From an uncultured Campylobacterales bacterium (GTDB taxonomy: Bacteria; Campylobacterota; Campylobacteria; Campylobacterales; Sulfurovaceae): a DNA stretch of 64,000 nt. The notes below the pieces were generated by a model, which saw only the letters and a list, made by a program, of their open reading frames with translations, did not search any database and was not told the DNA's origin. The DNA is taken from NCBI GenBank assembly GCA_964520575.1, contig CAZFNK010000008.1, forward strand, positions 2,458-66,457. Reading direction: 5' to 3'. Shown piece by piece: positions 20,008-34,168 of the stretch (position 1 is its first letter; each line of letters opens with the position of its first letter). The position numbers and the translations under genes are program-made.

Positions 20008-20036
20008 TTGACAATATAAACTTTTTGAGCTATAAT
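20008..20036 (+). promoter_or_regulatory. consensus sigma-70 promoter for the tRNA pair
   Basis: TTGACA (20008-20013), a 17-nt spacer, then TATAAT (20031-20036), about 38 nt upstream of tRNA-Gln. Confidence 0.65.
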
Positions 20037-24249: not shown

Positions 24250-26880
24250 ATGGGTGAAAATAGCAAAAAATCCTACGATCCGAAATCTATAGAAGATAGC
24301 TATTATCGCATCTGGGAAGAGCGAGGATACTTCGAGATAGACGGCAACAAAAGTATCCAGAAGGAGGGCAAAATATTTTCTATCTCCATGCCTCCGCCCA
24401 ATGTTACCGGCAGCCTTCATATAGGGCATGGGCTGACATTTACCATACAGGACATCATGATCAGATACAAACGTATGGATGGCTACAAGACCCTCTGGCA
24501 GCCCGGAACCGATCATGCGGGTATCGCTACCCAGAATGTAGTAGAGAAGCAGCTTCTGAGCGAAGGAACTACCAAAGAGGAGATCGGCAGAGAGGCTTTT
24601 TTGGAGCGCGCATGGGCACAAAAGGAGGCATCAGGAGGCACTATCACCTCTCAGTTGCGCAGGCTCGGCGTCTCTCCGGCATGGAGCAGAGAGCGCTTTA
24701 CGATGGATGAGGGTCTAGCCAACGCTGTCAAAAAAGCATTCAAACTGATGTACGACGAGGGTTTCATCGTGCAGGATAATTATATGATCAATTGGTGTAC
24801 GCATGACGGAGCACTCAGCGATATAGAGGTAGAGTACGAAGAGCATCAAGGCAAGCTATACCATATCAGATACCCCCTCAGTGACGGTAGCGGATCGGTA
24901 GTGGTGGCCACTACCCGTCCGGAGACCTATTTTGGCGATACAGCCGTGATGGTACATCCTGATGATGTACGCCACAAACATCTAATCGGCAAAAAAGTTG
25001 CTCTGCCTTTAATTGGAAGAGAGATAGAGATCATCGCCGATGAACATGTCGATATGGAGTTTGGTACCGGATTTGTCAAGGTGACCCCCGCACATGACCC
25101 AAATGACTATGAGGTGGGTAAGCGACATGATCTGGAATTTATCACTATTTTTGACGAAAACGGCATCCTCAACGAACACTGCGGTGAGTTTGCCGGCATG
25201 GAAAGACTCGAAGCCAGAGTCCCGATCGTTGATAGGCTGGAAAAGGAAGGGTTCATCGTGAAGATCGAGGAGCACATTCATCAGGTAGGGCACTGCTACA
25301 GATGCAAAAACATAGTAGAGCCCTATATATCCAAACAATGGTTTGTCAAAAAAGAGTTTGCCGCCGGAGCCATCGAGAGGGTCAACGCAGGCGAGGCCAA
25401 ATTCTTCCCTTCCCACTGGATCAACAGCTACAACGCATGGATGAATGATCTGCGAGACTGGTGCATCAGTCGTCAGCTGTGGTGGGGGCACCAGATACCT
25501 GTGATGCATTGCCGAAGTTGCGGAAAACATTTTGCTTTTGAGGGAGATACGCCTACAGCTTGTGAACACTGCGGCAGCGAAGATATATACCAAGATCCTG
25601 ATGTGCTTGATACATGGTTTAGCTCAGGACTATGGCCGTTTTCTACCCTTGGGTGGGGTAACGGTGAAGCTTTGCGGGGCGAAAAGTGGCAGGAGAGCGA
25701 TATGGAGGAGTTTTATCCAAACTCCCTGATGATCACCGGATTTGATATTCTGTTCTTCTGGGTAGCCAGGATGCTAATGATGGGTGAAAGGCTTACGGGC
25801 AAACTCCCCTTTCCGCATATCTACCTGCATGCTCTTGTCAAGGACGAAAAGGGCGAGAAGATGTCCAAGTCCAAAGGAAACGTTATCGATCCTCTTGTGA
25901 TGATAGATCGCTATTCTGCCGACGCGCTTCGCTTTACACTTGCCGTGCTGGCGGTACAGGGGCGCGATATAAAACTGAGTGAGGAGAAGCTGGAGCAGTC
26001 CCGCAACTTCACAAACAAACTGTTCAATGCCGCCAAATATCTCCAGCTCAACCATGATACGTTCGATGATCTAAAACCTGAGGATATTACTACGCCGCTT
26101 GGCAGATATATGCTCTCAAGATTTTACCTTGCTGTCAAGGAAACAAGAGATTATCTCGATCAGTATCGCTTCAATGACGCTGCGACCACACTCTATAGAT
26201 TTTTGTGGGGTGAATTTTGCGACTGGGGGATAGAGCTGAGCAAGGCAAGCAAAGAGAGTATAGTCGAACTTGGCAGCATTTTTAAAGAATCAATGAAGTT
26301 GCTTCATCCGTTCATGCCTTTTATTACCGAATACCTCTATCAGACTCTCAGCGGCACCAGGCTGGATGACTCAGAATCGATAATGATCAAACCCTATCCT
26401 GCAGAAGGCAGTATAGATGAGCAGATCACGCGAGAATTTGCGCTGGCTATCGAGGCTATTGTCTCTGTGCGTCGTTGCAAAACACTTGTGGACAAAGCTA
26501 ACCAGAGGATCGAAAAAGCATTTGTTAAAATAGGCTATAATATCGACAGAGAACTATTGAGGGCATTTATCGAAAAACTTGCCAAAGTAGAGAGGATCGA
26601 GTTTGTCGATGCCAAGCCTCAAAACGCGGTAACTGATGTGAGCGATCATCTCGAGAGCTATATCTCGACTGATGATATAGATATAAGCGGTATCATCGCC
26701 AAATATGAAAAGCAAAAAGACAAACTCGAAAAAGAGATCACCAAGCTCTCAAATATGCTTGCCAATGAAAAGTTTGTCTCCAATGCGCCAGAAAATGTCA
26801 TTGCCCAAAACCGCGCGGCCTTGAATGAAGCACAGGACAAATTCGCCAAAGTCAACAAGGAGTTGAGTGCGCTGGTATGA
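24250..26880 (+). CDS. valS: valyl-tRNA synthetase
   Basis: Class I HIGH (SLHIGHG) and KMSKS motifs, a C-terminal coiled coil, 876 aa. Confidence 0.97.
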   Translation: MGENSKKSYDPKSIEDSYYRIWEERGYFEIDGNKSIQKEGKIFSISMPPPNVTGSLHIGHGLTFTIQDIMIRYKRMDGYKTLWQPGTDHAGIATQNVVEKQLLSEGTTKEEIGREAFLERAWAQKEASGGTITSQLRRLGVSPAWSRERFTMDEGLANAVKKAFKLMYDEGFIVQDNYMINWCTHDGALSDIEVEYEEHQGKLYHIRYPLSDGSGSVVVATTRPETYFGDTAVMVHPDDVRHKHLIGKKVALPLIGREIEIIADEHVDMEFGTGFVKVTPAHDPNDYEVGKRHDLEFITIFDENGILNEHCGEFAGMERLEARVPIVDRLEKEGFIVKIEEHIHQVGHCYRCKNIVEPYISKQWFVKKEFAAGAIERVNAGEAKFFPSHWINSYNAWMNDLRDWCISRQLWWGHQIPVMHCRSCGKHFAFEGDTPTACEHCGSEDIYQDPDVLDTWFSSGLWPFSTLGWGNGEALRGEKWQESDMEEFYPNSLMITGFDILFFWVARMLMMGERLTGKLPFPHIYLHALVKDEKGEKMSKSKGNVIDPLVMIDRYSADALRFTLAVLAVQGRDIKLSEEKLEQSRNFTNKLFNAAKYLQLNHDTFDDLKPEDITTPLGRYMLSRFYLAVKETRDYLDQYRFNDAATTLYRFLWGEFCDWGIELSKASKESIVELGSIFKESMKLLHPFMPFITEYLYQTLSGTRLDDSESIMIKPYPAEGSIDEQITREFALAIEAIVSVRRCKTLVDKANQRIEKAFVKIGYNIDRELLRAFIEKLAKVERIEFVDAKPQNAVTDVSDHLESYISTDDIDISGIIAKYEKQKDKLEKEITKLSNMLANEKFVSNAPENVIAQNRAALNEAQDKFAKVNKELSALV

Positions 26881-26900: not shown

Positions 26901-27377
26901 TCAGCAATCATTATAGGGGTGCTGTTTTGCTAACGTCTTGCTTTTCCACATAGTACGTAAGAAACCGTCGATTGGACTGTCTTCTTCTTCTGGATTGCAG
27001 TCAATAGTGATACTGTCTGGGTTACTTTGATGGTTTTCAATGTCATCAAATATATTGCATATAAGCTTACCTTCTTTCCCACCCTCTTTCCATATCATAT
27101 CTATTCCTGCATCCGTCAAGGCGGTGATGGTTGCCTTTATACCATCTGACCGTATAGAAAAATCCTCATCCTCGTATAGGATCTGAGTATAATTGTTGTC
27201 AGAAAATTCGATTGATACATAAGAAGGGTTTTGGCAGGTATCTTTTTGATACCAGACATGCTTAGTCGCTACAGCCTTGGGATCAAACGCTTCTTCGGCA
27301 GTCGTACTGTTGCAGCCGATGATAGATACCATCATCGCTATCCCGCCCAATAATACAGCTTGTGTTTTCATTTTCAT
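26901..27377 (-). CDS. hypothetical lipoprotein
   Basis: Signal peptide with lipobox (MVSIIGC). An acidic, Cys-containing 158-aa protein with no family recognised. It is the last gene downstream of the toxin-cassette array on the same strand. Confidence 0.6.
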   Translation of the reverse strand: MKMKTQAVLLGGIAMMVSIIGCNSTTAEEAFDPKAVATKHVWYQKDTCQNPSYVSIEFSDNNYTQILYEDEDFSIRSDGIKATITALTDAGIDMIWKEGGKEGKLICNIFDDIENHQSNPDSITIDCNPEEEDSPIDGFLRTMWKSKTLAKQHPYNDC

Positions 27378-27488: not shown

Positions 27489-27553
27489 GTGGTCGCCTCC
27501 CCTATAGGATTGGCTCCTTCCATCCCCATCTCGGCGATCATCGCTCCGATTGG
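27489..27553 (-). repeat. pre-toxin module remnant R6 (5' third only, AEMGMEG variant)
   Basis: Encodes GAMIAEMGMEGANPIGEAT, then diverges and stops at 27449-27451. DNA is near-identical to 28860-28912. Confidence 0.8.
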
Positions 27554-27571
27554 ATTTTGTTCACATTTATA

Positions 27572-27580
27572 TGCTATAAT
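27572..27580 (+). promoter_or_regulatory. extended -10 element (TGcTATAAT) 6 nt before an ATG (possible leaderless mRNA)
   Basis: TGCTATAAT at 27572-27580 and ATG at 27587. There is no SD in between. Confidence 0.4.
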
Positions 27581-27586
27581 GAGCAC

Positions 27587-27814
27587 ATGGGTAGGATAGA
27601 TAAGGAAAAAGAAGAGATCGGCTGGATGAAGTTTTGGATTGGGGTGAGCGTTGCCTCAATCATGGGTCTGATCAGCTGGTTTGTCAATCATTACGCAGAT
27701 GCAAACAATGTCATTTTGATTATGGATTTGCTGGCGATTGTTGTTTTGGCAGTTTTTATCGTCATGCTCAATCGCACTGCATTACGCAAAATAAAAGAAT
27801 TGGAGAACTTATGA
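27587..27814 (+). CDS. small two-TM membrane protein (opposite strand to toxin array)
   Basis: 75 aa from the ATG (the track gives a TTG start at 27557). TMs WMKFWIGVSVASIMGLISWFV and VILIMDLLAIVVLAVFIVML, then an amphipathic C-terminus. Confidence 0.5.
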   Translation: MGRIDKEKEEIGWMKFWIGVSVASIMGLISWFVNHYADANNVILIMDLLAIVVLAVFIVMLNRTALRKIKELENL

Positions 27815-27903
27815 TTACTGCCATGTATGTTGTGATTTTGGTCGCATTTGTTGGAGCTTTGAGCTACAGCATGATGATGACACTTCGAAGCTTTGATCAG
27901 TAA
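27811..27903 (+). CDS. 30-aa hydrophobic peptide, translationally coupled (ATGA) to the preceding ORF
   Basis: MITAMYVVILVAFVGALSYSMMMTLRSFDQ. Its ATG overlaps the TGA of the upstream ORF at 27811-27814. Confidence 0.3.
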   Translation: MITAMYVVILVAFVGALSYSMMMTLRSFDQ

Positions 27904-27911
27904 TCTCTTTA

Positions 27912-28016
27912 GCCCGAGGCCAGCCCGCCAAAGAGCGCGGCGATGGTGGCCTCTCCTATAGGATTGGCTCCCTGGAGCCCCATCCCGGCGATCATGGCTC
28001 CGCTGAGTTTGGAAGC
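27912..28016 (-). repeat. pre-toxin module remnant R5 (5' two-thirds, AGMGLQG variant, premature stop)
   Basis: Encodes ASKLSGAMIAGMGLQGANPIGEATIAALFGGLASG then TAA. It begins 6 nt after the stop of the preceding immunity gene, as at cassette 3. Confidence 0.85.
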
Positions 28017-28022
28017 TGTTTA

Positions 28023-28343
28023 TTAGCTCTTGAACCATTCAGTGCAGCAGAGCAACCAATAAAAAAAAGCAGGTGCAGCAATTGTGATAATTCGTATAGC
28101 TTTTTTGTTTTTTTCATTAGCAACAATGTCAAAGTTTGGCAAGTCATATACCCACTCAAAACCCCCCTCAACAATTGCAGCAAAAACAACGACGCGCACA
28201 AGAATGTTTTGTGAAAAAAAGACATCGTAATAAAACAATAAATGGGCAAATGCGCTTAAAAATATTGATGCAAGTATGTATTTAATGTTTTGCCCTGCAA
28301 TACGATTCTTTTGCCTCCAGTATTTTATGTGAAATCCACTCAT
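28023..28343 (-). CDS. putative immunity protein of cassette 4 (polytopic membrane protein)
   Basis: 106 aa with about 3 TM segments. ATGA overlap with the cassette-4 toxin stop (28340-28343). AT-rich, no family recognised. Confidence 0.6.
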   Translation of the reverse strand: MSGFHIKYWRQKNRIAGQNIKYILASIFLSAFAHLLFYYDVFFSQNILVRVVVFAAIVEGGFEWVYDLPNFDIVANEKNKKAIRIITIAAPAFFYWLLCCTEWFKS

Positions 28344-28948
28344 TTGATTACCTGATACACACCATATGCCAAATCTAACGTAGTGGGTAGCCAGTGGTAT
28401 TTTGACAACGACATTGCACCTACGCCGAGGGCTAATCCAGTCCTATCATTTTGAAGTGCATCCACACCAATTGCGGCAATACCGAATCTTACCGCCATAC
28501 CTGGAGGAGAAACTGTAGATGCGACCGATAACCCCAACCCAACAACATCACCGCTTTTTTCATTCATCCTTTCTAAGTCCAACACCCTCTCATATGCTTT
28601 TTCATAAGAGATTTTATGTTGCGATCTTCGTCTCATACTTGCTGCAACGATTTTCTGCGTTCGCAACTCTCTTGCTCTTTGTTGCGTGAGTCGATAATAT
28701 TTGTGACCGTTCTTGTATGTGACGGTACTATTTCTCTGTTGATAATCTGCCATTGCATCATTATACAAATAAACCACCATCGCCGTCAAGGCACCCTCGG
28801 CGAAATCCCCGCCCGAGGCCGTCGAGGCCATCCCGCCAAAGAGCGCGGCGATGGTGGCCTCTCCTATAGGATTGACTCCTTCCATCCCCATCTCGGCGAT
28901 CATGGCTCCGGAGAGCTTTTCATTTCCTGCAATCTTTTCTCCCAACAA
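28340..28948 (-). CDS. polymorphic-toxin cassette 4: pre-toxin module + Gly-zipper-rich C-terminal domain
   Basis: KLSGAMIAEMGMEGVNPIGEATIAALFGGMASTASGGDFAEGALTAMVVYLYND followed by a unique 130 aa. The track start is TTG; the first in-frame ATG (28903) lies inside the module. Confidence 0.65.
   Translation of the reverse strand: MLGEKIAGNEKLSGAMIAEMGMEGVNPIGEATIAALFGGMASTASGGDFAEGALTAMVVYLYNDAMADYQQRNSTVTYKNGHKYYRLTQQRARELRTQKIVAASMRRRSQHKISYEKAYERVLDLERMNEKSGDVVGLGLSVASTVSPPGMAVRFGIAAIGVDALQNDRTGLALGVGAMSLSKYHWLPTTLDLAYGVYQVIK
28757..28917 (-). repeat. pre-toxin module copy, cassette 4
   Basis: DNA near-identical to 29677-29845 and 31871-32037 in its 3' part. The 5' part is the AEMGMEG variant. 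Confidence 0.9.
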
Positions 28949-29214
28949 GGTACCTCTTCCACTCTCAAAATAAGAGCAATAAATAATTCAAACAAGATCC
29001 ACAAAATAATTGCAATAATCAGTGCTACCAATAAACTACCAAAAAAGTTTGGAACAATAAAAAATAAAAGCAAAATTATTGAAATCTCCAAACCAGAAAT
29101 TATCGAAAAAAGAAAACGAAAAATTTTTTTTGGACGATAACATTTTTTACTGACAGGATCACGGAATATTTTCCTTCTTCTCAAAAGAATGTACCCATTA
29201 ATACCATACATCAT
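28900..29214 (-). CDS. putative immunity protein of cassette 3 (small membrane protein)
   Basis: 104 aa with 2-3 TM segments. It starts 9 nt after the cassette-3 toxin stop, with AAAGAG upstream. Its last codons run into the next module out of frame. Confidence 0.55.
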   Translation of the reverse strand: MMYGINGYILLRRRKIFRDPVSKKCYRPKKIFRFLFSIISGLEISIILLLFFIVPNFFGSLLVALIIAIILWILFELFIALILRVEEVPCWEKRLQEMKSSPEP

Positions 29215-29223
29215 GATTACTCT

Positions 29224-29823
29224 TTAGTGCAAAGGATTTATTTCATTGTGAATAATATCGGCTGCAGTTCCGGCAGGCTTAATACTTAAAGAGGTAGATG
29301 TATACAAACCTCCTAATATATTGTCGATAAAGCCAATTCCTTTCCCTGTCAAATAGGCGCCAATATAATAGTTTGGCCTTTTGAGCACATCATTACCAAG
29401 TTTTTCTAAAATATCCATCTTGTGGTATTTTAATCCATACATCAAAAGCTTATATTCGGCTTTTGCTTCCATTTTGTACCATCCAATTCTATTGCCGTGT
29501 TGCCAATCTCTGAATCCGGTTGATCTACCCAAATAATCACCATAAGCATACAATGCTTTCGGAGCAGATACAACACCTTCGGCCAAATCTTTTCCACCTT
29601 TTGCGGCATTTTTCAACAACGAGCCTTTGCGCACCCTTCCAAACGCAGCTTTTTCCGCCATCATGTCAGACCAAGCCTCATTATACAAATAAACCACCAT
29701 CGCCGTCAAGGCACCCTCGGCAAAATCCCCGCCAGAGGCCGCAGAGGCCATCCCGCCAAAGAGCGCGGCGATGGTGGCCTCTCCTATAGGATTGGCTCCC
29801 TGGAGCCCCATCCCGGCGATCAT
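29224..29823 (-). CDS. polymorphic-toxin cassette 3: pre-toxin module + unique C-terminal domain
   Basis: MIAGMGLQGANPIGEATIAALFGGMASAASGGDFAEGALTAMVVYLYNE followed by a unique 145 aa. The ATG is the in-module Met; module homology extends upstream to 29845. Confidence 0.65.
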   Translation of the reverse strand: MIAGMGLQGANPIGEATIAALFGGMASAASGGDFAEGALTAMVVYLYNEAWSDMMAEKAAFGRVRKGSLLKNAAKGGKDLAEGVVSAPKALYAYGDYLGRSTGFRDWQHGNRIGWYKMEAKAEYKLLMYGLKYHKMDILEKLGNDVLKRPNYYIGAYLTGKGIGFIDNILGGLYTSTSLSIKPAGTAADIIHNEINPLH

Positions 29824-29845
29824 GGCGCCGCTGAGCTTGGAAGCA
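29677..29845 (-). repeat. pre-toxin module copy, cassette 3 (full length)
   Basis: Starts 6 nt after the stop codon at 29851-29853 of the preceding immunity gene and ends at the GAG (E) of LYNE. Confidence 0.9.
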
Positions 29846-29850
29846 AATTG

Positions 29851-30369
29851 TTAAATATGACTTCTCAAAAAAGCTTTTAAAATTTGTTCTTCTGCTGTAT
29901 TACAATGCACAAAACACGAAAAATATTGTGCATCGTGGTCAGGCACAATTGTTATTGCACCATCATACACAGTAGTCTCACCATTGTATTTATCAAACAC
30001 TTGATCTTTCAATCCCATAATCATGGACATCACATGCTCTTCTTCCGGTTCTGTCACATAAAACAGCATTGATTCTAATATTTCATCGATATGATTAATG
30101 TCAAGCTTCTGATTAAAATATCGAGAAGTCTCTTGAGAATTTCTGCCAAAAAATTTTACGACAGAAAACCTTTCTATCTTCATTTTGTTCGCAACAATGC
30201 TTGTGTAACCATTTTCATAAAAAAAATCAATCAATTCCTTGGCTGTTTTAACTATTTGCTTTTTAATCTCGGTATTGTTATCAGAAAGCGTTGCATAAAT
30301 TATTTCACCATATTCTATTGTCAAAATACATTCTTGGGCGTCAACATTGAAGCAAAAATTTTTTAGCAT
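29851..30369 (-). CDS. putative immunity protein of cassette 2 (cytosolic, acidic)
   Basis: 172 aa from ATG 30369, with no TM. TAATG overlap with the toxin stop and a GGAGG RBS inside the toxin 3' end. Confidence 0.6.
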   Translation of the reverse strand: MLKNFCFNVDAQECILTIEYGEIIYATLSDNNTEIKKQIVKTAKELIDFFYENGYTSIVANKMKIERFSVVKFFGRNSQETSRYFNQKLDINHIDEILESMLFYVTEPEEEHVMSMIMGLKDQVFDKYNGETTVYDGAITIVPDHDAQYFSCFVHCNTAEEQILKAFLRSHI

Positions 30370-30905
30370 TACCAACCTCCTTCATATGGTCTATGGTACT
30401 GCATACTTTTTTGAGAAAGTCCTCGATGATAGTGCCAGTATTTTATATTTTTCCCATATGGCAAATTAAACTTTTTTGATAGCCTTGGAGAAAAGCCATG
30501 CTTTTCAATCCGCAAAACTGGCTGACCTGTTGACTTTAATCTTATCTGCAAAGGCTTGGCTTTTCCAAGAAATTCAAAAGCCAGTTTTCCACCTATAGCC
30601 GCTTCACCAACCATGAACTCAGCTTGATAAATAGGACCTTTTGCATACTCTGGGGCACCATCCAATGCCGCCATGGCACCATTGTATCCTCTTTTGACTG
30701 CCTTTCCTGCATCACGAGCGATACGACCGCTTTTGATCTCGCCATACAGTTTTTGCATAGATTGACCAAGCGTAAGCTCATTATACAAATAAACCACCAT
30801 CGCCGTCAAGGCACCCTCGGCGAAATCTCCTCCAGAGGCCGCTGAGGCCATCCCGCCAAAGAGCGCGGCGATGGTGGCTATTATCCAAGTTGGCAATAAT
30901 CGCAA
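30369..30905 (-). CDS. polymorphic-toxin cassette 2: 5'-truncated pre-toxin module + unique basic C-terminal domain
   Basis: ATIAALFGGMASAASGGDFAEGALTAMVVYLYNE followed by a unique 135 aa ending ...KYWHYHRGLSQKSMQYHRPYEGGW. Only a TTG start; the first in-frame ATG is 30851, inside the module. Confidence 0.6.
   Translation of the reverse strand: MRLLPTWIIATIAALFGGMASAASGGDFAEGALTAMVVYLYNELTLGQSMQKLYGEIKSGRIARDAGKAVKRGYNGAMAALDGAPEYAKGPIYQAEFMVGEAAIGGKLAFEFLGKAKPLQIRLKSTGQPVLRIEKHGFSPRLSKKFNLPYGKNIKYWHYHRGLSQKSMQYHRPYEGGW
30777..30878 (-). repeat. pre-toxin module copy, cassette 2 (3' part only)
   Basis: Homology begins at gccaccatcgcc (ATIA). The ASKLSGAMIAGMGLQGANPIGE part is missing. Confidence 0.9.
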
Positions 30906-30932: not shown

Positions 30933-31421
30933 TTATTTTTTCCTCATCACTTTATTTTGACTGTGGTCATCAAACTCTAAATATGCATGAATAAAGTCTT
31001 TCTCTTGTTTGGATAGATTTTTGTATTCACCGGTATATTTAATCTTCTCAATATATTTAGTTAGCTCAATTTTATCTGCTTCTATTGCATCGGAAAAGTC
31101 TTGTGCAAAATATGCAAAAGGATATTGTTCATAATCCTGTAAGAATTTTACATAATAATAAAATCTCTCTTCAACCGACAACTCTTTAATGCAAGGAAAT
31201 ACAGCTATCATCGAATCCATGGCATAATCATCATAAAAGAGTTTTATATATTTGGATATGGCTATCCATCTGTAATAGCTTGCAAGCCTACTTTTCTTCC
31301 CTATCTCTTTCTCTATCTGCTTGCCTTGATAATATACATCGGTAACAACATAAAGTATGCCCGCAAAAAATGCAACAAATACCAAGCTCAAAAAAAGTAC
31401 TGTTCTTGCATATTTTTTCAT
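30933..31421 (-). CDS. putative immunity protein of cassette 1 (N-terminally membrane-anchored)
   Basis: 162 aa with a single N-terminal TM (VLFLSLVFVAFFAGILYVV). ATGA overlap with the cassette-1 toxin stop (31418-31421). Confidence 0.6.
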   Translation of the reverse strand: MKKYARTVLFLSLVFVAFFAGILYVVTDVYYQGKQIEKEIGKKSRLASYYRWIAISKYIKLFYDDYAMDSMIAVFPCIKELSVEERFYYYVKFLQDYEQYPFAYFAQDFSDAIEADKIELTKYIEKIKYTGEYKNLSKQEKDFIHAYLEFDDHSQNKVMRKK

Positions 31422-32104
31422 TTTATTTCCAATGTTCCATAATAGGTAATGCTATTTTGCCAGTTATACCAATGTGGACCTTGATAAAATTTTATTTGCT
31501 TTGTTTTAGTGTTAAGCAAAAGACTCCTGACTGCTTGCCACTGTTTAAGATTATTTTTAATCGTTACACATCCAAAACTCAAAGCACCGTTATATAATCT
31601 TATTCCCGATCTTCCATTATGGTAATCATCAATTCTGCCATCGTTATATAACAATGAAAACCAACCTGGATGCTTTTGGGGATTTACATTATCTGTTATC
31701 AAGTATTTCCCTGATGGAGCAGCCTTCTGCCTGACACCACCATCGGTCACAGCAACTCGGCCATGTGCATCAACCTTTCCACCCGTAAAAGCATCTACGA
31801 CTACATGTTCACCCGTGTCATTGTCAGCCATATAAAGTTTCTCTTCTTTCGTGTCAAGTACCGCACTGACCTCATTATACAAATAAACCACCATCGCCGT
31901 CAAGGCACCCTCAGCAAAATCTCCTCCAGATGCCGCTGAGGCCATCCCGCCAAAGAGCGCGGCAATGGTGGCCTCTCCTATAGGATTGGCTCCCTGGAGC
32001 CCCATCCCGGCGATCATGGCTCCGCTGAGTTTGGAGGCGATGGCGGAGATGAAGCCGGTCTTGAAATCTCCGCCTCTAAGAACCGTGATGAGCCCCTGGG
32101 TCAT
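31418..32104 (-). CDS. polymorphic-toxin cassette 1: longer N-terminal stub + pre-toxin module + L,D-transpeptidase-like (DUF2778/Tlde1-like) C-terminal domain
   Basis: ...GGDFKTGFISAIASKLSGAMIAGMGLQGANPIGEATIAALFGGMASAASGGDFAEGALTAMVVYLYNE, then a CT containing GKYLITD, HPGWFSLL and GRSGIRLYNGALSFGCVTI. The frame stays open upstream of the ATG to 32227. Confidence 0.65.
   Translation of the reverse strand: MTQGLITVLRGGDFKTGFISAIASKLSGAMIAGMGLQGANPIGEATIAALFGGMASAASGGDFAEGALTAMVVYLYNEVSAVLDTKEEKLYMADNDTGEHVVVDAFTGGKVDAHGRVAVTDGGVRQKAAPSGKYLITDNVNPQKHPGWFSLLYNDGRIDDYHNGRSGIRLYNGALSFGCVTIKNNLKQWQAVRSLLLNTKTKQIKFYQGPHWYNWQNSITYYGTLEIK
31871..32037 (-). repeat. pre-toxin module copy, cassette 1 (full length)
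   Basis: Near-identical to 29677-29845. Upstream of it, unique GC-rich coding-like sequence continues to about 32190. Confidence 0.9.
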
Positions 32105-32236
32105 TCCGTGGCTCAGAGCCAGCCCGAAGTTCCAGCCATGCGTCCCGAAGGCCTCGGGCAGTCCGCTGGCAAACGAAGAATTGATCGAATAAGCAAGATG
32201 TTGCAGTATAATTTTATAATAATTTATCTAATGATA

Positions 32237-32710
32237 TTATATCCTGCTTTGACTCTTCAATGCAATTGACAGTTTCTCTAATAAAGTCTTATCCAATTTT
32301 TTTCTTATTTTTTCAAATCTTGAGGTGGCTTTCTCATACTCCCGATTAGTAAAAAAAATCTTAATATTTTGTTTGCGGATAAATTTGTCAAAATTATTTT
32401 TGTTATATGATGAATACACAGTATTGCTTTTCTTATCGATGACAATATAGCTTAACGCTTTATCAAAAAAAATTTTTTCGTCAGGGCAATTAAAATATCT
32501 TAAAGGATACCTTATAGCAATAATGTAATTATCATTATATTTTACATCAAGGATATAGCTTAAATGTAATTTTTTATTTGCGAACGATCTTATTGCATCA
32601 TAGCCACTATAGTATAAAAAGTAATCTCCCTTCCCAAGTTTGCCCTCATTGTAATACCAATAATGCAATGAGGCAAACGCTAAGATAATAACAATAAATA
32701 TTTTCTTCAT
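32237..32710 (-). CDS. orphan immunity-like secreted/membrane-anchored protein
   Basis: 157 aa, N-terminal hydrophobic segment MKKIFIVIILAFASL, very AT-rich, no family recognised. Its ATG lies 2 bp from the IS end. Confidence 0.5.
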   Translation of the reverse strand: MKKIFIVIILAFASLHYWYYNEGKLGKGDYFLYYSGYDAIRSFANKKLHLSYILDVKYNDNYIIAIRYPLRYFNCPDEKIFFDKALSYIVIDKKSNTVYSSYNKNNFDKFIRKQNIKIFFTNREYEKATSRFEKIRKKLDKTLLEKLSIALKSQSRI

Positions 32711-32712
32711 AA

Positions 32713-32750
32713 GGTAATCCCCCCATTTCCCAACCCCACTAAAAGTAGAA
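32713..32750. repeat. IS terminal inverted repeat (orfB-proximal end)
   Basis: GGTAATCCCCCCATTTCCCAACCCCACTAAAAGTAGAA. The terminal GGTAATCCC and subterminal AAAAGTAGAA match the rc of the other end. Confidence 0.75.
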
Positions 32751-33578
32751 TTAGGCTACAAGAGCCAACTTCTGGGCAGGAGTGATCCCGCCTATTGCCG
32801 TATTGGGTCGTTCGTTATTATACACCCAAAGCCATTTGGTTGCAAACTCTCTCACCTCCTCGATAGAATTAAATATGTATTGATTGAGCCATTCATACCG
32901 TACAGTACGGTTATATCTTTCGATATAAGCATTCTGCTGCGGTTTGCCAGGTTGAATATATTGCAAGACTATATTTTGCTTTGTTGCCCAATTTTGCAAT
33001 GCTGCCGAAATATACTCAGGACCGTTATCACACCGTATGATCTTTGGCTTTCCTCTCCATTCAATGATTCTCTCTAAAGCTCTTATCACTCTTTGTGAAG
33101 GCAAAGAGAAATCAGCTTCAATCTCCAGTCCTTCACGGTTATAATCATCATTCACATTAAAGAGCCTGAAGCTTCTGCCGTCACCGAGATTATCATGCAT
33201 AAAATCCATAGACCATACTTCATTAGGCATAGAAGACACACTAAGAGGTTCCGGTGTTTCGCGTTTGATACGCTTTTTAGGCTTGATGCGCATATTCAGT
33301 TCCGGCTCTTTGTATATCCTGTACACCCTTTTATGATTCCATCCATATCCTTTGACATTACGAAGATATAAAAAACAGAGTCCAAAGCCCCAGTTTTTTT
33401 GATTATGTGTCAGACGTATGAGCCAATCTGCTATCAGTTCATTTTCTTCATTGAGTTTGGATTCATATCTATAACAATACTCACTGATCTTAAAAGCTTT
33501 ACAGGCTAAACGGATCGTAATCTGTTTTTCTTCAACCGCTTTGACAGCAATCTTTTTACGCAAAGATGGCTTTACCAC
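32751..33578 (-). CDS. IS3-family transposase OrfB (DDE integrase core)
   Basis: An rve-type core (WSMDFMHD..., CDNGPEYIS..., [16 protein letters not shown]). It has no own ATG and is entered by a -1 frameshift from orfA. Confidence 0.9.
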
Positions 33579-33838
33579 TTTTTTTCGAGTGCCTCCTGTA
33601 CTATTTCTGCTTTAAGACGCTCTTCTGCGTACATCTTTTTTAAACGACGGTTCTCCTCTTCAAGCTCTTTAAGTTTTTTCATCAAAGAGGCATCCATCCC
33701 TCCATATTTACTACGCCAGTTATAAAAAGTAGCACTGCTTATACCGTGCTCTCTACAAAGCTCTGGTACCGGTATACCACTCTCTGCCTGTTTTAAAATT
33801 GCCAATATCTGCGTATCGCTAAATCGCGACTTCTTCAT
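33572..33838 (-). CDS. IS3-family transposase OrfA (HTH)
   Basis: [44 protein letters not shown] plus a leucine-zipper-like end. GGAG RBS. Confidence 0.9.
33578..33585 (-). promoter_or_regulatory. programmed -1 ribosomal frameshift site (A AAA AAG)
   Basis: Minus-strand GAAAAAAAGTGG at the end of orfA. Slipping -1 reads ...[14 protein letters not shown], which is the OrfB N-terminus. Confidence 0.75.
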
Positions 33839-33870
33839 AGAAAATCTCCTTACAATATTTTACTGGAATT

Positions 33871-33910
33871 TTCTACTTTTGGGAAGATTGGGTTTTTGGG
33901 AGGGATTACC
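33871..33910. repeat. IS terminal inverted repeat (orfA-proximal end)
   Basis: The rc reads GGTAATCCCTCCCAAAAACCCAATCTTCCCAAAAGTAGAA. Confidence 0.75.
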
Positions 33911-34014
33911 GTTCCTTAAAATAATCTTTTCCAGATAAATTATACTTTTCGTAACACTTTTTTGTCAGTTTGAGCCTTAAGATTCCTTTTACCCAAATTT
34001 GTTATACTTGCTGT

Positions 34015-34105
34015 CTCAATTCTCTCGGGGTGCCGCAAGGCTGAGAAGATGATCCGTCTACCCGTCGAACTTGAACCAGACAACACTGGCGTAAGGAAGA
34101 GATAC
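34015..34105 (+). promoter_or_regulatory. TPP (THI-box) riboswitch
   Basis: CTCGGGGTGCCGCAAGGCTGAGA...ACCCGTCGAACTTGAACCAGACAACACTGGCGTAAGGAAGAG matches the conserved GGGGUGC / GCUGAGA / ACCC..GAAC.UGA.C..G.UAA..C.GGCG.AGGGA core. It sits in the thiB leader. A possible SD-sequestering helix pairs CTATCC (34131-34136) with GGATAG (34160-34165). Confidence 0.82.
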
Positions 34106-34168
34106 TGCAACAATCTATCAGTACTTCTGCCTATCCCAGTTTTACAAACTAAAACACAAGGATAGAAA

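Follow-up and report, generated by a model that had tools for sequence, protein, structure and literature searches.

A probable array of orphan toxin cassettes of the Rhs/YD-repeat family in an uncultured Campylobacterales bacterium

Layout of the island

We analysed a stretch of 64,000 nucleotides (nt) of DNA, hereafter the window, from an uncultured Campylobacterales bacterium (family Sulfurovaceae; GenBank assembly GCA_964520575.1, contig CAZFNK010000008.1, positions 2,458 to 66,457). Between valS (24250-26880, plus strand) and a thiamine pyrophosphate (TPP) riboswitch with thiB (34169, plus strand), the window contains a 7.1-kb island encoded almost entirely on the minus strand. Four cassettes follow one another in this island, and each consists of a partial copy of a conserved module, a variable tip and a small open reading frame (ORF). 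The first of them, cassette 1, is probably a spare orphan toxin cassette with a cut-off 5' end, belonging to the Rhs/YD-repeat family of polymorphic toxins. In the following, positions are those of the window, and features lie on the minus strand unless the plus strand is given.

In the order of transcription, the island comprises a promoter-like site, an insertion sequence (IS) of the IS3 family, an ORF matching DUF3997, the four cassettes and two module stubs that have no tip. Cassette 1 begins with a single-copy stub of 45 codons (FASGLPEAFGTHGWNFGLALSHGMTQGLITVLRGGDFKTGFISAIA; 32039-32173), which is homologous to the middle of the pre-toxin linker that follows the core of full-length Rhs proteins. 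Module copy 1 (168 nt, ASKLSGAMIAGMGLQGANPIGEATIAALFGGMASAASGGDFAEGALTAMVVYLYNE; 31871-32038), which forms the C-terminus of the pre-toxin domain and closes with the junction motif LYNE, comes next, and then the variable tip (31418-31870), a putative Tlde1-like domain with the L,D-transpeptidase fold. Putative immunity gene 1 (30933-31421), with an N-terminal hydrophobic anchor, has an ATG that overlaps the stop codon of the toxin frame (ATGA). Cassette 2 (30369-30883), as read from the sequence, is a module remnant of 34 codons (30777-30878) with a variable tip, and is followed by putative immunity gene 2 (29851-30369). In cassette 3 (29224-29850), the module starts at about 29844 with GCTTCCAAGCTCAGCGG; the tip is related to tips in two metagenomic contigs, L002 and L003, and putative immunity gene 3 (28900-29214) would encode a membrane protein. 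The 3' end of this gene enters the module of cassette 4 in another frame, so that the C-terminus of its product is encoded by module DNA (overlap 28900-28925). Cassette 4 (28340-28948), the module of which starts at about 28921, is followed by putative immunity gene 4 (28023-28343), which would also encode a membrane protein and also overlaps the stop codon of its toxin frame (ATGA).

The tip of cassette 1 matched Pfam PF10908 with E=4.7e-6 and 27.5 bits, below the cut-off of 30.1 bits, and contains the motif H-x13-SFGC, which we take to resemble the motif of YkuD-type L,D-transpeptidases. A sequence search with this tip against solved structures gave only chance matches to nanobodies, and no cassette had a match in NCBIfam. 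The N-terminal membrane anchor of the immunity candidate would suit a toxin with a periplasmic site of action.

The ORF upstream of cassette 1 (32237-32710) encodes 157 amino acid residues (aa) with an N-terminal hydrophobic anchor, and matched DUF3997 in Pfam (E=1.6e-6, 28.8 bits, cut-off 25). It is immunity-like in its position, which is that of the immunity gene of a missing 'cassette 0'; it could not be assigned to a known immunity family, as it had no homologue among 5.8 billion proteins and no NCBIfam match.

The preliminary description of this DNA had reported that no large ORF with the features of a delivery protein (haemagglutinin, Rhs, PAAR or VgrG) lies in the island. We likewise found no ORF of at least 300 aa between the end of valS (26880) and the start of thiB (34169), and the largest ORFs of the window are housekeeping genes. 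When five Rhs relatives were used as tblastn queries, nothing but the module copies was hit across the 64 kb; no dedicated search was made for PAAR or VgrG.

The 5' boundary of cassette 1

The preliminary description had further noted that the frame of cassette 1 continues upstream of its first ATG as protein-like sequence and then breaks off abruptly, and we confirmed this observation. The frame (ORF 31418-32104) stays open to 32227 and is closed by an in-frame TAG at 32228-32230; the first ATG, GTG or TTG codon in it is ATG 32104. The 23 codons upstream of this ATG (32105-32173) are GC-rich and protein-like (FASGLPEAFGTHGWNFGLALSHG), and the GC content drops from 0.57 (32100-32199) to 0.25 (32200-32299).

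The sequence upstream of the ATG is genuinely homologous to other proteins. In tblastn searches against the window, a relative designated P0002, which is encoded on the metagenomic contig L001, gave an E-value of 4e-52, and a full-length-type Rhs protein on contig L006 gave 9e-25 over 32191-31871. Moreover, the ungapped local alignment with the DNA of L001 opens exactly at 32173 (TTTGCCAGCGG...) and extends 285 nt into the module. As the homology with L001 starts so sharply at this position, the abrupt break is a true homology boundary. ATG 32104 is an inherited internal Met codon, and the same LSHGMTQG is found in P0002. The ratio of non-synonymous to synonymous substitution rates (dN/dS) of the stub against L001 is about 0.17.

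The stop codon of the upstream ORF (32237-32239) is separated from the point where homology starts by an AT-rich spacer of 63 nt (32174-32236), delimited by sequence, GC content and alignment. We judge its codons from 32174 to 32227 to be non-coding filler that is open in the frame of cassette 1 by chance.

Two origins had been offered for cassette 1, namely the 3' stump of a once larger toxin gene and an orphan with longer retained homology. The latter fits better, because the break at 32173 lies 63 nt after a small immunity-like ORF, which is the layout of the other junctions of the array. The start of homology at 32173, together with the lack of YD-repeat or core sequences in the tblastn search of the window, bears out the proposal that the cassettes are 5'-truncated toxin tips with no part for export or delivery.

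The conserved module

Six copies of the module are present in the island, and all have different 5' ends that are nested in the same sequence. The copies start at 32173 in cassette 1 and at about 29844 (cassette 3), 28016 (stub 5), 28921 (cassette 4), 27548 (stub 6) and 30883 (cassette 2). Cassette 1 retains the last 103 codons of the linker, cassettes 3, 4 and 2 retain 56, 54 and 34 codons, respectively, and the two stubs retain less. In contrast to these 5' ends, the four complete copies all end with ...GTTTATTTGTATAATGA(G/T), encoding VYLYN(E/D). Stub 5 (27915-28016) is truncated at both ends and has no toxin tip, and stub 6 (27490-27548) is a remnant of 59 nt. An ORF for an 85-aa membrane protein without a Pfam match lies on the plus strand between the two stubs (27557-27814), and a hydrophobic frame of about 30 codons, seen by eye, follows it at this decayed end of the array (insert 27557-27903, plus strand). 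Beyond the stubs there is a lipoprotein-like ORF of 158 aa (26901-27377).

The GC content is 0.60 in the module and 0.39 in the tip. A GC-rich core with an AT-rich tip is the classic pattern of Rhs loci, and the values obtained here fit that pattern.

Between the modules of cassette 1 (31871-32038) and cassette 3 (29677-29844), there are nine synonymous and no non-synonymous differences in 168 nt. Cassette 1 and L001 differ with dN 0.094 and dS 0.67 (dN/dS 0.14). Because the differences in both comparisons are mostly synonymous, the modules diverged while they were translated, that is, inside functional full-length genes. On these grounds the cassettes would be independent captures and not local duplications, and there would have been little time for decay since their capture.

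Full-length relatives and the parent family

When 5.8 billion proteins were searched through a word index with cassette 1 as the query, only three foreign relatives appeared. The closest, P0002, is 86% identical across stub and module; its DNA is only about 85% identical, and L001 comes from a different sample accession. Upstream of the part shared with cassette 1, P0002 continues as ...ARLYDPTIGRFLMPDSIIPD...NRYAYVYANPLKYVDPDGH, which matched the Rhs core model TIGR03696 (Rhs_assc_core) with 59 bits (cut-off 32.5). In the Rhs frame of L001 (3-210), a stop codon lies about 45 codons ahead of the core motif and reflects either a pseudogene or an assembly error, and after ...GALTAMV the protein has a tail of 22 aa in place of LYN and a toxin.

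The protein on L006 is a YD-repeat protein of 1025 aa that is cut at its N-terminus, and its parts follow in the order core, linker, module and tip; L005 and L011 share this order. The module occurs with no visible core in L002, which was found by homology search, in L003, from a metagenome-assembled genome (MAG) of Campylobacteraceae, and in L004 and L007-L010. L008 has two modules, and the orphan status of L010 is provisional, since its module runs off the start of the contig. The orphan on L003 (932-1500) is decayed, with a stop right after WLYNEIDA and a tip related to that of cassette 3, and lies directly after a PIN-type toxin-antitoxin pair.

An exhaustive profile search of 1.84 billion representative proteins found 1466 proteins at E<=1e-3. 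Among the best 150 of these, 14 are long (1725-3089 aa) and carry the module about 130-330 aa from the C-terminus. Larger homologous genes thus exist in L005, in L006 and among these long proteins, and the possibility, raised in the preliminary description, that no larger homologue exists in this genome or any relative does not hold. Three of the long relatives were scanned for domains: all have FG-GAP and RHS repeats, and two have SpvB. The C-terminal regions of these proteins have a common layout and run from ...YxDPxGH through a hydrophobic helix, Gly-rich segments and GHG...LAHGxxQG..LRGGxF..GF to GGLAxxAxGGxFxxGA...hL(F/Y)N(E/D), and then to 130-200 variable residues.

The order in the parent genes is SpvB, FG-GAP, RHS repeats, Rhs core (TIGR03696, ...YVDPDGH), a pre-toxin linker of about 220 aa, the junction, the toxin and the immunity gene. 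The linker consists of a hydrophobic helix, Gly-rich segments and a DUF637-like end, and closes in the motif (V/H)L(Y/F)N(E/D) before the variable toxin of 130-200 aa. Tblastn and the TIGR03696 match show homology between the conserved 5' part of the cassettes and the C-terminal region of full-length Rhs proteins. The boundary between the conserved and variable parts does not lie at PxxxxDPxGL but at VVYLYN(E/D), and in the relatives DPxGH is found about 220 aa upstream. From these domain orders, the delivery protein of the module family appears to be a TcB/TcC-like Rhs protein. The variable tips of the family look antibacterial (Tlde1-like, Peptidase_M23 and a toxin with the restriction-endonuclease fold) and not insecticidal.

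In two full-length relatives inspected for their neighbouring genes, L019 (163-9548) and L020 (871-10237), lnt (apolipoprotein N-acyltransferase) and an ORF of about 170 aa precede an SpvB/FG-GAP/RHS gene of 2416-2423 aa. Neither a TcA-like gene nor a module-bearing orphan was found within 2-3 kb downstream of these genes.

Proposed origin and use of the cassettes

The mechanism established for Rhs orphans (PMC3150448, PMC3967940) appears to be the one best supported here. An incoming tip would enter a full-length gene by recombination at the conserved module and push the previous tip downstream. We propose such C-terminal displacement because nested 5' breakpoints are what it leaves behind. 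The module would then serve as a homology arm, and deployment of a toxin would require homologous recombination of the module with a full-length gene, as the cassettes have neither a part for export or delivery nor a convincing translation start of their own. Recombination of an orphan tip with a full-length gene has been shown experimentally for Salmonella (PMC3967940). The immunity genes may be useful on their own, by protecting the cell against its neighbours.

Several points weigh against this interpretation. The roles of the cassettes as toxins and immunity genes are putative, assigned from position and from one sub-threshold Pfam match. Rhs orphans normally lie directly downstream of a main gene, and their unlinked position here is unusual. 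By tblastn and inspection of ORFs, the window contains no main gene within 26 kb on one side of the array and 30 kb on the other. The relatives of the stub among the 5.8 billion proteins are the three foreign ones, and none comes from sequencing runs containing this strain. Three Logan contigs, from runs containing this strain, pass unbranched through 32173 and stop at 32006, where the repeated module begins; since there is no branch at 32173, a second, nearly identical copy of the stub is unlikely in the sampled population. A scan of genome contigs for the parent gene gave only one distant orphan, in the MAG of Campylobacteraceae. The recombination partner, if present, would have to be diverged, or it may be missing altogether.

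Translation starts and promoter-like sites

The start codons of cassettes 2-4 are as had been described. Outside the module, cassette 2 has only TTG 30905 and 30896, and the first start codon of cassette 3 is ATG 29823, inside the module. In cassette 4, TTG 28948 and 28945 are outside the module, and the first ATG, 28903, is inside. As judged by Shine-Dalgarno pairing, dedicated translation starts are indeed lacking or weak at the candidate codons, except possibly in cassette 4, where TTG 28948 is preceded by GGAAGAGG. ATG 32104 of cassette 1, the conserved internal Met codon, has an anti-Shine-Dalgarno pairing of about median strength; TTG 30905 of cassette 2 has no Shine-Dalgarno sequence, and ATG 29823 of cassette 3 is an internal codon of the module with weak pairing. 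Scoring by duplex energy is noisy in the GC-rich module, where GGAG and GAGG occur by chance, and cannot settle the start signals. The statement that the immunity genes have their own ribosome-binding sites is clearly true for the second gene only, which has a strong Shine-Dalgarno sequence (AAGGAGG, -12.8 kcal/mol); the others are at or below the genome median of anti-Shine-Dalgarno pairing. The overlap of two immunity genes with the toxin stop (ATGA) suggests translational coupling to the toxin frame.

Although the preliminary description took the array to be a probably silent reservoir, transcription might proceed from a promoter-like site at the head of the island, from sites inside the modules, or from both. 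The former (CTGACA-18-TATAAT, 33939-33968) points into the array, from which it is now separated by the IS, and is followed by AAGGAAC directly at the end of the IS; the 65-nt segment that contains this site is absent from the related contig L012. As for the latter, every complete module has one site, TTGACG-18-TATAAT, with 11 of 12 matches to the consensus (31874-31903, 30780-30809, 29680-29709 and 28760-28789); this site ends at the Tyr-Asn codons, at the junction of module and toxin. The sole perfect site in the 64 kb (TTGACA-17-TATAAT, 12 of 12) is at 20008-20036 on the plus strand.

These sites raise the possibility, which we rate as rather unlikely, that each cassette is transcribed from its own module, at least for the immunity gene and possibly for the toxin tip. 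Such transcription would be compatible with the role of a reservoir. The sites lie on the sense strand of every module and end exactly at the junction, and the window contains seven sites this near the consensus where chance would give 1.6. Within the array, the minus strand showed no terminator-like site. In each tip an in-frame ATG follows the junction at a distance of 3-13 codons; in cassette 4, this ATG stands 6 nt after TATAAT. A precedent is known from Salmonella, where a promoter (P2) within the conserved region drives transcription of the main and orphan tips of rhs and a CTG codon serves as the translation start, with toxin-antitoxin-like behaviour; the P2 transcription start lies 89 nt upstream of the sequence coding for the motif (PMC7043789). 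However, in a genome that prefers AT, the conserved Tyr-Asn codons dictate TATAAT, and, although this hexamer is mostly conserved in the relatives, the -35 hexamer is not (ATGAGT, CTGAGT and CTTAGT there). The 18-nt spacer is suboptimal, and the four sites, being copies of one repeated sequence, do not count as independent observations. In addition, the toxin of cassette 1 looks periplasm-acting; because it has neither a signal peptide nor an Rhs shell, its production in the cytoplasm would do neither harm nor good, so that internal expression would achieve nothing.

A further idea, which we regard as improbable, is that the array is free-standing and needs no linked full-length gene, the module being both a recombination arm and a built-in promoter that keeps the immunity genes transcribed. 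If this were true, the island would be mainly a self-expressing collection of immunity genes against the TcB/TcC-like Rhs toxins of neighbouring Campylobacterota.

History of the locus

The IS (32713-33910) has features of the IS3 family, namely orfA (33572-33838, HTH_Tnp_1), orfB (32751-33578, rve) and imperfect inverted repeats beginning with GGTAATCCC, and its right end was confirmed by comparison with L002. A gap of 2 nt separates the IS from the ATG of the DUF3997 ORF, and a G-rich, Shine-Dalgarno-like stretch for this ORF lies inside the end of the IS. No target-site duplication was recognisable at its flanks (...GGAAC and TTATG...). An assembly chimera across the IS was considered as the reason for the missing duplication and was rejected, since the order thiB, IS, DUF3997 ORF and stub is found at 100% identity in an independent Logan assembly, L016, from another sequencing run. 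On L002 (1898-2302), an unrelated metagenome contig of the Joint Genome Institute, an IS of the same type (orfB 86% identical in protein sequence) lies beside an orphan cassette from this toxin family; the co-occurrence in L002 and the window may be due to chance or to a real association.

The closest genomes, as measured by the identity of ThiB (80%), are Sulfurovum-like Campylobacterota. In one of them, L012, purL, valS and thiB are contiguous, with a gap of 321 bp between valS and thiB and no toxin gene, and in L013 two unrelated genes fill this gap. Because of this arrangement, we regard the island as an insertion at a variable spot and not as the remains of a conserved toxin locus. The TPP riboswitch (RF00059, 67.4 bits; 34016-34114, plus strand) lies upstream of thiB, and the island with its IS is located about 100 nt upstream of the riboswitch.

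A full-length Rhs gene might once have stood between thiB and the array, with the IS or an IS-caused deletion removing it and leaving the DUF3997 ORF and the orphans, but we consider this history quite improbable. It would explain the missing target-site duplication, which is expected after an IS-mediated adjacent deletion or when two IS copies recombine; the far end of the IS is directly adjoined by a promoter-like site and AAGGA, as if a gene had once begun there, and the DUF3997 ORF is in the position of the immunity gene of a main gene. However, the break of cassette 1 is 540 nt from the IS, with an intact ORF and a spacer between them, so that the stub was not cut by the IS. The locus shows no sign of an Rhs gene in L012, where valS and thiB are adjacent, or in L013, and tblastn with the five Rhs relatives found no YD or core remnant in the window. 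Joined, the flanks of the IS read AAGGAACTTATG, which would supply the DUF3997 ORF with a plausible Shine-Dalgarno sequence and ATG; thus, a simple insertion of the IS between the Shine-Dalgarno sequence and the ATG is equally possible.

An origin of the cassettes from a CdiA/haemagglutinin-type exoprotein of a two-partner-secretion system, the parent implied by the preliminary description, is highly improbable and was rejected: the module has a weak match to DUF637 and its LYN junction is similar to ELYN, the motif by which the toxin region of CdiA is marked in Burkholderiales (PMC5435912), but the Rhs core (TIGR03696) and YD/RHS repeats are present in every relative that extends upstream, and every long relative examined is an Rhs protein. 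Of 65 module-bearing proteins, 21 matched the end of DUF637, the best of them at E=3.7e-7 as compared with 0.017 for the module of cassette 1. None of the haemagglutinin or filamentous haemagglutinin (FHA) repeat families was among the matches of these 65 proteins, and the long relatives were SpvB/FG-GAP/RHS proteins, not proteins with a two-partner-secretion domain and FHA repeats. The term 'exoprotein-like' used for the upstream sequence of cassette 1 therefore stands as far as the weak similarity to DUF637 is concerned; the shell of the long relatives is of the Rhs/YD type, not of the haemagglutinin/CdiA type. The module would thus be a divergent relative of the CdiA/FhaB pre-toxin region, carried on an Rhs shell.

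Comparison with known systems

An orphan cassette of the Rhs/YD-repeat family, as we propose for cassette 1, shares many properties with the Rhs orphan modules of E. coli and Salmonella (PMC3150448, PMC3967940). There, as here, a 5'-truncated conserved piece is joined to a variable tip and a small downstream immunity gene; the cassettes stand in tandem in one orientation, with a GC-rich conserved part and an AT-rich tip; and signals for translation initiation and export are absent (lacking or weak in the present array), with activation proposed to occur by recombination with the main gene. Unlike in those systems, the junction LYN(E/D) lies about 220 aa beyond the core motif PxxxxDPxGL, so that the homology arm is the pre-toxin linker; the parents are SpvB/FG-GAP/RHS (TcB/TcC-like) proteins and not PAAR-Rhs proteins; no main gene is adjacent; and the host belongs to the Sulfurovum-like Campylobacterota. 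The promoter-like sites resemble the P2 promoters of Salmonella rhs (PMC7043789) in that a sigma-70-type element stands in the shared conserved sequence just upstream of the variable toxin. Unlike P2, they are matches to a consensus only, and they end at the junction, so that a transcript would lack the module.

Like the orphans of CdiA-CT/CdiI with their VENN or ELYN demarcation (PMC3150448, PMC5435912), the cassettes have a DUF637-like pre-toxin region ending in LYN, of which tandem orphans keep variable lengths; the delivery protein here, in contrast, would be an Rhs shell and not a two-partner-secretion filament. As in the TcB-TcC cocoon of Tc toxins, which combines SpvB, FG-GAP, RHS and a core aspartyl protease, the order SpvB/FG-GAP/RHS is found within a single polypeptide in two of the three scanned long relatives and FG-GAP/RHS in the third, and the core ends with DPxGH in each. 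Unlike in Tc toxins, no TcA gene lies beside the genes of L019 and L020, the toxin has a conserved linker of about 220 aa in front of it, and the tips look antibacterial.

Conclusions

The storage of alternative toxin tips as orphans is already known, and it is ordinary here except for the distance from any full-length gene; by itself, the orphan array raises no new biological question. New with respect to the textbook are the LYN junction, the DUF637-like linker arm, the parents of TcB/TcC type, the host among the Campylobacterota and the lack of a linked main gene. Gene callers give the cassettes as stand-alone hypothetical proteins of 178-228 aa that start at internal Met or TTG codons, and these should be annotated as fragments of polymorphic toxins. 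The analysis defines a widespread and apparently unnamed pre-toxin linker that joins an Rhs/TcBC shell to exchangeable toxins through the LYN junction. With it, the model in which Rhs genes evolve by displacement and orphan formation also covers shells of the TcB/TcC type and the Sulfurovum-like Campylobacterota.

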